In this document: positions 12,117 to 13,210 of the stretch, piece by piece | Layout: each line of letters begins with the position of its first letter | How positions within the stretch are numbered: the first letter of the stretch is position 1 | Source of the DNA: a virus | Taxonomy: Duplodnaviria > Heunggongvirae > Uroviricota > Caudoviricetes | Virus record (IMG/VR): IMGVR_UViG_2698536618_000030 | Reading direction: 5' to 3' (one strand) | DNA length: 25,572 bases | Notes under the pieces: generated by a model | The model's database searches: none | Told to the model about the DNA's origin: nothing | The model's input: the letters and a program-made list of their open reading frames with translations, nothing else | Translations under genes and position numbers: made by a program

Positions 12117-13210
12117 ATGTCGATGTACACAACCGCCCAGCTGCTGGCGGCAAATGAGCAGAAATTTAAGTTTGATCCGCTGTTTCTGCGTCTCTTTTTC
12201 CGTGAGAGCTATCCCTTCACTACGGAGAAAGTCTATCTCTCACAAATTCCGGGACTGGTAAACATGGCGCTGTACGTTTCGCCGATTGTTTCCGGTGAGG
12301 TTATCCGTTCCCGTGGCGGCTCCACCTCTGAATTTACGCCGGGATATGTCAAGCCGAAGCATGAAGTGAATCCGCAGATGACCCTGCGTCGCCTGCCGGA
12401 TGAAGATCCGCAGAATCTGGCGGACCCGGCTTACCGCCGCCGTCGCATCATCATGCAGAACATGCGTGACGAAGAGCTGGCCATTGCTCAGGTCGAAGAG
12501 ATGCAGGCAGTTTCTGCCGTGCTTAAGGGCAAATACACCATGACCGGTGAAGCCTTCGATCCGGTTGAGGTGGATATGGGCCGCAGTGAGGAGAATAACA
12601 TCACGCAGTCCGGCGGCACGGAGTGGAGCAAGCGTGACAAGTCCACGTATGACCCGACCGACGATATCGAAGCCTTGTATTATCCCTCCAGTGCAGAGAA
12701 AATCGGCCAGTTTTCTCTGCCTGCAGTCCGCATGCCGTATCGGGCGCGCTGAACGCCAGCGGTGTGGTGAATATCATCGTGTTCGATCCGAAAGGCTGGG
12801 CGCTGTTCCGTTCCTTCAAAGCCGTCAGGGAGAAGCTGGATACCCGTCGCGGCTCTCATTCCGAGCTGGAGACAGCGGTAAAAGACCTGGGCGAAGCGGT
12901 GTCCTATAAGGGAATGTATGGCGATACGGCGATCGTCGTGTATTCCGGACAGTACGTGGAAAACGACGTCAAAAAGAACTTCCTGCCGGACAACACGATG
13001 GTGCTGGGGAACACTCAGGCACGCGGTCTGCGCACCTATGGCTGCATTCAGGATGCGGACGCACAGCGCGAAGGTATTAACGCCTCTGCCCGCTACCCGA
13101 AAAACTGGGTGACCACCGGCGATCCGGCGCGTGAGTTCACCATGATTCAGTCAGCACCGCTGATGCTGCTGGCTGACCCTGATGCGTTCGTGTCCGTACA
13201 ACTGGCGTAA
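12117..13210 (+). pseudogene. E: Major capsid protein gene E, interrupted: N-terminal part (to ...DPTDDIEA) in one frame, C-terminal part (ALNASGVVNIIVFDP... to end) in another, separated by a net insertion of about 68 nt
   Basis: ORF track splits E into 12090..12752 (ends with non-E tail LYYPSSAEKIGQFSLPAVRMPYRAR*) and 12764..13210 (in-frame with lambda E C-terminus). Span 12117..13210 is 1094 nt versus 1026 nt for a 341-aa E. Confidence 0.8.
12693..12720. repeat. Perfect 10-bp inverted repeat (GCAGAGAAAA / TTTTCTCTGC) with 8-nt loop, inside the E-gene insertion
   Basis: Read directly: gcagagaaaa tcggccag ttttctctgc at 12693..12720. Confidence 0.85.

Follow-up and report, generated by a model that had tools for sequence, protein, structure and literature searches.

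The DNA considered here, hereafter the window, is the entire 25,572-nucleotide (nt) stretch of IMG/VR virus record IMGVR_UViG_2698536618_000030. It corresponds to the late region of a DLP12/lambda-type lambdoid prophage, in which ybcN, rusA, quuD and the lysis genes are followed by terminase, portal, protease, D and E and by the tail genes to J and lom. The capsid gene of this prophage, E, is broken by a short segment identical to the left end of IS621, a member of the IS110 family of insertion sequences (IS) that encodes a recombinase together with a 177-nt 'bridge RNA' (PMC11208160). This segment is almost certainly a dead IS621 stump, probably left behind in the gene by failed or aberrant excision. 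The features of the locus are listed below in window positions.

12117–12674, + strand: gene E, N-terminal fragment (codons 1–186); 100% amino acid (aa) identity to aa 1–186 of E from Escherichia coli O39:NM F8704-2; Phage_cap_E profile 1–178
12667–12677, + strand: intact IS621 left junction, made up of the left target TCGAAGC (12667–12673), the CT core (12674–12675) and TG, the first two IS bases (12676–12677); same junction as in the full insertions of 11 genomes
12676–12745, + strand: IS621 nt 1–70, the left-end stump; 70/70 identical to the IS621 of contig L001
12678–12683, + strand: TATTAT, putative -10 box of the promoter formed at the IS621 circle junction; its distance from the right-end TTGCAG in L001 is as expected
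12690–12722, + strand: bridge RNA nt 1–33, the 5' stem-loop (the hairpin of the insert); numbering anchored on a 177-nt bridge RNA ending at the recombinase ATG
12739–12745, + strand: DNA for positions 1–7 of the left target guide (LTG), ATCGGGC, bridge RNA nt 50–56; end of the stump, directly before the CT core of the guide
12745/12746, no strand: deletion junction, at which IS nt 71–1279 (right CT core included) and the 'AC' of TAC-187 are missing, 1,211 base pairs (bp) in all, with a 1-nt 'C' ambiguity; placed by base-by-base comparison with L001 and L011 (full insertion) and with L004 (intact allele)
12746–13210, + strand: gene E, C-terminal fragment (codons 188–341 and stop), in a frame that differs from the N-terminal part; 100% aa identity to aa 188–341 of F8704-2 E; profile 186–328
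12750–12752, + strand: TGA closing a 211-aa product (E 1–186 plus a 25-aa IS-encoded tail, LYYPSSAEKIGQFSLPAVRMPYRAR)

The split capsid gene

The whole of the split gene spans 12117–13210 and is broken after codon 186 (GCC, 12672–12674), where 71 extra bases begin. A first-pass annotation, made from the letters alone, had described E as colinear with lambda E up to this codon, and nucleotide alignment to lambda E (98.5% identity, in two pieces) agrees. Re-reading of the frame likewise bears out the premature stop, as E runs on through 12675–12745 into the TGA at 12750–12752, and E sequence picks up again at GCGCTGAAC (12746) in another frame that stays open to the TAA at 13208–13210. The net gain of 68 nt was also correct, the gene measuring 1,094 nt where the nearest intact allele has 1,026 nt. 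The foreign stretch, given as some 71 nt (12675–12745), was rightly located but slightly oversized: since the T at 12675 is common to the original TAC codon and to the CT core, the foreign DNA amounts to 70 nt (12676–12745), and 2 nt of E, the 'AC' of codon TAC-187, are absent from the window allele.

The Pfam profile Phage_cap_E (PF03864) is covered from 1 to 328 in the intact relative, whereas in the window it is divided between two fragments (1–178 and 186–328), and no single polypeptide encoded there spans the entire profile. Jointly, these fragments are 100% identical in aa to the intact 341-aa E of the nearest relative, minus Tyr187. The only products expected from the split gene are the 211-aa N-terminal protein and, possibly, one from a 148-aa open reading frame (ORF) that starts at GTG 12764 within the C-terminal part and was called as a separate gene in the source assembly. 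The exact truncated 211-aa protein is CTZ96787.1, which is present on one contig only. Because the E fold is severed into two pieces, it is plausible that the prophage fails to make capsids, as the first-pass annotation had supposed; the defect could be complemented by other lambdoid prophages of the host.

The insert is the left end of IS621

When 5,426 complete E. coli genomes were searched with the insert sequence, it turned up at 12,996 places in 2,234 of them, and each annotated case inspected proved to be the left end of IS621. The window copy matches this end at 70 of 70 positions and begins immediately after the CT core at 12674–12675. On these matches it is practically certain that the insert comprises the first 70 bases of IS621 and is the remnant of an element since lost. 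What had been taken for an insertion of about 68 nt is therefore what remains of a 1,279-bp IS621 after a deletion of 1,211 bp. The earlier suggestion of a dispersed small element was right as to dispersal (~13,000 places) but not as to the kind of element, which is no unknown small one but the IS621 left end. The ~13,000 matches consist almost entirely of left ends that belong to complete elements, and left-end-only copies were seen at three loci besides the window. Terminal inverted repeats, target duplication and many independent short copies, as would be expected of a miniature or autonomous small element, are not found; the inverted repeat in the window is internal and corresponds to an RNA stem-loop. 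It had also been proposed that an indel error in the A4 or T4 runs conceals an in-frame insert. This is not supported, as the runs, which belong to the arms of the hairpin, match canonical IS621 base for base (70/70), and the frame is disrupted because four bases (CTAC) are missing at the right junction.

The bridge RNA begins at IS nt 15, which is window position 12690. Its 5' stem-loop accounts for the perfect 10-bp inverted repeat with an 8-nt loop that had been reported in the insert and was verified at 12693–12720: the arms are GCAGAGAAAA (12693–12702) and TTTTCTCTGC (12711–12720) and the loop is TCGGCCAG (12703–12710). In a folding computation the hairpin scores -19.9 kcal/mol as RNA, with z = -2.2. 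The LTG occupies bridge RNA nt 50–58 (AUCGGGCCU) and the stump ends at C56, position 7 of the guide; the numbering used here reproduces the published positions G53 and A81/U82 (PMC11208158). Only nt 1–56 of the 177-nt bridge RNA are therefore retained, namely the 5' stem-loop, one strand of a loop stem and guide positions 1–7. At gathering thresholds, Rfam 15 gave no match in the window, nor for the intact bridge RNA in L001, and contains no bridge-RNA family model.

The remainder of the element is missing. The recombinase gene (DEDD/serine type; Pfam PF01548 and PF02371), which occupies IS nt 192–1172 in L001, is deleted from the window, as is the right end (donor left half ACAGTAT plus CT core), and the junction instead reads ATCGGGC|GCGCTG. 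No second IS621 left-end copy lies in the window. Without the right end, the core at its inner end, the recombinase gene and the rest of the bridge RNA, the stump should be unable to move or to be excised. The IS621 promoter is reconstituted across the junction of right and left ends (PMC11208160), and its -35 box appears to have lain in the deleted right end. A consensus scan predicted no promoter in the window context; a promoter or terminator role for the stump was considered and set aside for want of consensus hits.

The insertion site in E

The full 1,279-bp IS621 occupies the identical site in E in exactly 11 complete E. coli genomes, representing at least four E alleles (examples L001 and L011). 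The target there is TCGAAGC-CT-ACGCG. By comparison, the bridge RNA, in its target-binding loop, specifies ATCGGGC-CT-ACGCA (ATCGGGCCTAC), and the common natural target, ATCAGGCCTAC, lies in REP elements (PMC11208160). As read from the sequences, pairing with the guides would be good over the core and right half of the E site (positions 8–13, with a wobble at 14), whilst the left half would match at positions 6–7 only, or at 4–7 if two rG:dT wobbles are allowed. The site would thus be an off-target with one good half, yet it must be a genuine target since 11 genomes hold a full IS621 in it.

A further rearrangement touches the same target. In contig L023 (1440–1500; Logan SRR17729769), from a different lambdoid prophage, a deletion fuses D to E (...ACCCATTA|TCGAAGCCTACGCG), with 2-nt microhomology; on its right side the break coincides with base 1 of the 14-nt IS621 target in E.

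Four states of E in one lineage

Sister contigs of the window were found by looking up contigs that encode the 148-aa C-terminal ORF of E. At least five assemblies from different sequencing runs (L024, L025, L026, L028 and L029) carry an IS-free E from which CTAC has been lost, GAAGC[CTAC]GCGCTG, and the resulting product of 187 aa (...IEAR*; P0004) is encoded on eight contigs. In their flanks these assemblies do not differ from the window; L024 shows 0 differences from it over 1,480 nt on the left and 1,700 nt on the right. Another contig, L027, begins inside the right end of IS621 (...ACAGTAT-CT-ACGCGCTG...) and continues into the right flank of the window lineage, with 0 differences over 1,900 nt and a BLAST match of 100% over 1,966 nt. 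In the nearest complete genome, E is intact and its flanks are identical to those of the window (0 differences in 1,024 nt).

A single lineage, by these comparisons, shows E in four states: intact, occupied by a full IS621, empty but without CTAC, and bearing a left-end stump without the same CTAC. The right-hand break point is common to the last two, so that the loss of CTAC recurs within the lineage. Amongst the complete E. coli genomes searched, neither the window junction nor the CTAC-deleted E was found, and a precise 72-bp remnant of the kind described below was found in E neither in the 5,426 complete genomes nor in the other collections scanned.

Precise 72-bp solos at other loci

Left ends of IS621 without the rest of the element form a small class, defined in this analysis from three loci (flg, msrQ-zinT and znuB-ruvB) and having the form LT-CT-[IS 1–70]-CT-RT, where LT and RT are the left and right target halves; they are termed solos here. 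At flg, ...ATCAGGC-CT-[IS 1–70]-CT-ACGAG... is present in 39 genomes of the O26:H11 lineage. Four O26-type genomes match the left flank and left end only, and the sole one of these inspected, L012, holds a full canonical IS621; in silico deletion of IS nt 73 through the right CT converts it to the flg solo locus with 0/600 mismatches, which at this one locus derives the solo from a full copy. The msrQ-zinT solo (...ATCCGGC-CT-[IS 1–70]-CT-ACGCAG...) is found in STEC2017-197, and the znuB-ruvB solo, which belongs to a related element, in ~565 genomes (including ST131, S88 and APEC O1) and 8 metagenome contigs. For msrQ-zinT and znuB-ruvB, exact empty sites, in which the flanks are joined through a single CT, exist in many genomes, and solos and empty sites differ by exactly 72 bp. 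The only homology at the solo deletion junctions is CT itself. That three independent events should end at one dinucleotide of a 1.3-kb element argues strongly that random slippage is not a plausible source of the solos, which recur at the boundary between guide and core.

The window stump is, by its sequence, an imprecise relative of this class, a near-member. On its left side, IS nt 1 follows the left target and CT just as in L007, L008 and L009. On its right side, the solos continue from nt 70 through CT into the right target half, whereas in the window CT and AC are absent, 68 nt are gained on balance and the stump breaks off 2 nt before the nt-72 point that the precise solos share. Exact-pattern scans for further stumps ending in ...ATCGGGC that is not followed by CTT found no instance in either viral or metagenome contigs. 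The single match among genome contigs, a 20-mer in a metagenome-assembled genome (MAG) of Pacificispira, was rejected, being the chance count expected for ~1.2e12 positions and lying in an unrelated context. In that MAG (OZ245920.1; L003 6944–6966), 23 nt identical to the window junction (GTCCGCATGCCGTATCGGGCGCG) lie beside duplicated tRNA 3' ends. A broader pattern allowing any guide sequence returned the znuB-ruvB solo again and nothing else.

The solos have features of their own. In STEC2017-197 the msrQ-zinT intergenic solo (L009 1464–1545) recreates a perfect 14-nt IS621 target, ATCGGGCCTACGCA, that is unoccupied although the genome has 15 IS621 left-end copies, and the target at the flg solo is likewise unoccupied in the 39 O26 genomes; low activity or some protection may be responsible. 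At znuB-ruvB (L008 1465–1540, S88; L005 1499–1574, ST131; L010 1601–1760, ExPEC XM), the guide copy reads ATCCGAC, as does the flanking left target, whereas the guide of the resident related IS is ATCCGGC; the differing position 6 lies within the strand-exchange region. In the ST131 version, one further change makes 14 nt identical to the flank. This difference could stem from heteroduplex repair, from a variant IS or from conversion between two direct repeats.

A copy of the left junction inside the guide gene

The position at which the stump and the solos end coincides with a peculiarity of the bridge RNA gene. Because the LTG includes the CT core, the DNA that encodes it is a copy of the ideal left target plus CT. 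IS nt 64–74 (ATCGGGCCTTG; ATCGGGC-CT-TG) copy the ideal left junction at 11 of 11 positions, the TG after the guide copy being also the first two bases of IS621, whereas the next best of the 71 CT-containing 11-mers of IS621, when scored as a left junction, reaches only 6/11. During excision, the left junction is read by the LTG (left target) together with the right donor guide (core and right donor), and the right junction by the left donor guide together with the right target guide (PMC13626964).

The donor-binding loop also contains a copy, that of the donor left half, at IS621 nt 137–145 (L001 4153–4161), which reads ACAGTATCA and is without a CT core. The CT is thus kept in the target-loop copy and absent from the donor-loop copy, an asymmetry that could explain why the solos are left-end only.

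Proposed origin of the stump

The following account of these observations seems to us, taken as a whole, a little better than evenly poised. The first step, established by sequence comparison, is the insertion of IS621 at TCGAAGC-CT-ACGCG in E. In a second step, which recurrence of the solos supports, the excision complex would have taken the internal LTG-coding DNA (IS nt 64–74) as its left partner, rather than the true left junction. The internal copy is a perfect match to the guide and carries the first two donor bases, whilst the true left junction has a poor left half. Recombination of the internal site with the right end would remove IS nt 73–1279 and is expected to leave a 72-bp solo, LT-CT-[IS 1–70]-CT-RT.

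In the third step the join would not have been clean, and CT|AC, which flanks the top-strand scissile bond T9|A10 with two bases to either side, would have been lost. The recombinase cuts the top strand at this bond (9|10), leaving a 5'-phosphoserine on nt 10, and the bottom strand between positions 5 and 6 (PMC11208158). When the bridge RNA is of wild type, strands are cleaved more than they are exchanged (PMC11208158), and excision geometry is reported to lower top-strand exchange further (PMC13626964). Strands that were cleaved but not exchanged would expose the ends ...GGGCCT-3' and 5'-(Ser)-ACGCG; removal of CT from the 3' end and of the serine-linked nucleotide from the 5' end, and rejoining on a 1-nt C microhomology (C7/C11), would give ATCGGGC|GCGCTG. 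The end formed at the true left junction, ...AAGCCT-3', is identical in its last four bases and would in the same way give GAAGC|GCGCTG, the allele of the sister assemblies. The outcome would be a frameshifted E (186 aa plus the 25-aa tail) and a prophage unable to supply its own capsid protein.

Several considerations weigh against this account. The window junction lies off the CT cores and, taken alone, bears no signature of site-specific recombination; nor does the lost CTAC (positions 8–11, or 7–10) coincide with the published 4-nt crossover region at positions 6–9. The side reaction at the internal site is rare and its statistics are thin, with three precise solo loci among ~13,000 left-end copies. 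E. coli is not known to have a classical end-joining pathway, which makes the repair step speculative. Descent is another possible source of the shared right break point, the window allele giving rise to the 'empty' one by a 72-nt deletion on GC microhomology, in which case one event would replace two parallel ones. A full IS621 with both flanks identical to the window was not recovered on one contig, L027 supplying the right side only, and the window junction is known from one draft contig. In addition, published accounts describe IS621 recombination as scarless (e.g. PMC11208160).

Other routes to the junction were tried and rejected. Slippage on a shared GTATC motif would yield GCCGTATCTACGCG, which was not observed, and recombination in a shifted register on a GC 'pseudo-core' would give a product 2 nt shorter than that seen. 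Loss of the published crossover region itself, positions 6–9, does not fit the bases actually lost, 8–11 (or 7–10), and the IS-excision enhancer (IEE) is reported to be inactive on IS621.

A two-step origin is possible, although we doubt it: a precise 72-bp solo would have formed first in E, recreating the target ATCGGGC-CT-ACGCG, and a later abortive attack or insertion-excision cycle would have removed CTAC, the IS-free CTAC-deleted allele arising by attack on the restored wild-type target. Such a history is compatible with all of the observations, differing from the one-step account in timing only. Precise solos exist elsewhere and recreate ideal targets, as the perfect 14-mer of L009 illustrates; one in E would, by computation, be 72 nt or 24 codons long, in frame and free of stops; both sites have the local sequence GC-CTAC-GCGCTG; and cleavage without exchange is documented in vitro (PMC11208158). 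It requires one event more, however, and its intermediate, a precise solo in E, is missing from every collection scanned. Moreover, the perfect targets recreated at flg and msrQ-zinT are still intact in genomes with 13–17 left-end copies.

Spontaneous deletions of about this size are frequent in decaying prophages, and a full IS621 might have lost 1,211 bp by slippage or another spontaneous process that did not involve the recombinase, with end points set by chance. The junction, with its mere 1-nt microhomology and its failure to meet either CT core, is of the kind that such a process could produce. Nevertheless, chance end points are an improbable explanation, as both lie at most 2 nt away from the positions of three independent precise solos, a coincidence that uniform break points would be expected to produce at about (5/1279) x (5/1279). 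The right break point, furthermore, recurs in the IS-free CTAC-deleted allele, and GTATC, the only longer shared motif, predicts a product that is unseen.

Less credible still is the notion that no full IS621 was ever present here and that the 70–72-nt left-end segment arrived as an independent mini-element, for instance through direct transfer of the top strand in which the internal site stood in for the right end. A direct-transfer pathway from the left junction has been reported for IS110 elements, the solos are bounded by CT on both sides and differ from empty sites by exactly 72 bp, as true insertions would, and the flanks of E in the window equal those of the intact allele. Against this, the full element occupies the same flg site in sister strain(s) (L012 being the one inspected), and an IS621 right end adjoins the identical right flank in the window lineage (L027). 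The internal site, in addition, has a target-like left half rather than the donor-like half that the left donor guide reads at the right end, and the solos are confined to very few loci, with one per genome, which is not the pattern of a mobile miniature element.

An assembly or sequencing artefact masking a full IS621 or an in-frame stump is highly improbable, even though the junction comes from a draft assembly (GCA_001285485.1), on a contig of 28.9 kb (CYGF01000049.1), and no other contig encodes the exact truncated protein, because the same CTAC loss recurs in at least five independent assemblies of the lineage, the missing CTAC is no homopolymer, the remaining 70 nt match IS621 perfectly and a multicopy IS of 1.28 kb would be expected to break a short-read contig, not to create a novel junction without a shared k-mer.

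Relationship to known systems and significance

The biology of IS621 has been set out by Durrant et al. 2024 (PMC11208160) and by Hiraizumi et al. 2024 (PMC11208158) and 2026 (PMC13626964). In common with the published element, the window stump, identical to nt 1–70, holds the bridge RNA's 5' stem-loop along with the left target guide and abuts a CT core beside a target in part resembling ATCAGGCCTAC or ATCGGGCCTAC. In contrast to it, only 5% of the element is left, with neither recombinase gene nor right end and with a bridge RNA that breaks off at nt 56 of 177; a protein-coding phage gene, not a REP element, serves as the target; and a stump and a 4-nt loss are found where published excision is scarless. 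Lambda gpE (PF03864) differs from the window E in being neither split nor frameshifted.

Solo long terminal repeats (LTRs) and IS fragments that deletions leave offer a further comparison, in that a short terminal piece stays after the body has been lost, permanently marking and inactivating the host gene. However, a solo LTR is the product of homologous recombination between two long terminal repeats, and IS621 has no terminal repeats; in the IS621 solo, the second partner would be the 9–11-nt target copy in the guide-RNA gene, and the length of the stump (70–72 nt) would therefore depend on where the guide lies. Among published systems, the closest parallel is ISPpu9 of Pseudomonas putida, also of the IS110 family, in which extra end-like boxes (A/A', B/B') give rise to alternative recombination, several circle types and partial modules (PMC12288879). 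In ISPpu9, though, it is a passenger small-RNA gene that lies between these boxes, and the modules seem to be mobile, whereas the IS621 site is guide-coding DNA and its product a dead stump.

In more general terms, we judge it an even question whether IS621 targets itself, its guide DNA being a left-junction copy that is occasionally paired with the right end to leave a 72-bp solo, and whether failed excision also leaves a reproducible 4-nt deletion at the scissile bond. By the logic of its design, the same would hold throughout the IS110 family wherever the core forms part of the left target guide. Remnants, scars and self-targeting go unmentioned in the published IS621 accounts; overlap is possible with two 2026 preprints (10.64898/2026.08.31.748434, on 'half-match recombination', and 10.64898/2026.08.14.744561), for which index probes gave no sign of 72-bp solos.

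The locus forms part of a natural four-state allelic series, alongside a small class of left-end solos that end at, or in the window near, the guide-encoded CT core. Together these would constitute field evidence that recombination can take place at guide-coding DNA, which appears to offer an internal site for it, and that failures of excision can follow a set pattern about the top-strand cut, apparently with a 4-nt scar of constant form as the result. The lead is modestly surprising and easily tested. If correct, bridge recombination in nature is not always scarless, and both by-products bear on the debate as to whether excision proceeds by cut-out or copy-out. It would also follow that the bridge-RNA expression cassette in editing constructs is itself a substrate, with consequences for the safety of cassettes and targets.

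Prophage context

For the prophage itself the event is ordinary, one more lambdoid prophage having been crippled by an IS, with damage that is permanent because the stump can no longer be excised. The window is 99.4% identical to the prophage of F8704-2, and the first-pass impression that the other morphogenetic genes are full length is upheld: each of the 31 other proteins annotated in F8704-2 from ybcN to J is complete in the window, E alone being split (aa 1–186 and 188–341), and lom is merely cut by the end of the window. The porin gene at 2063–3145 (- strand; nmpC-like, 360 aa) is intact in the window but split by an IS3-family element in F8704-2, so that two near-identical prophages each carry a different IS lesion. 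The tail-tip proteins K, I and J (20180–24951) are 96.8–98.4% identical to those of F8704-2, compared with ~100% for the head proteins, which indicates a mosaic tail module.

Two database entries resembling E deserve a comment. MW057783.1, 'Campylobacter phage CJLB-4', matches the window E exactly as lambda does (98.5%), and a partial capsid protein ascribed to 'Corynebacterium tuscaniense' (P0007) clusters with E of E. coli; both look like lambda DNA contamination or mislabelling.

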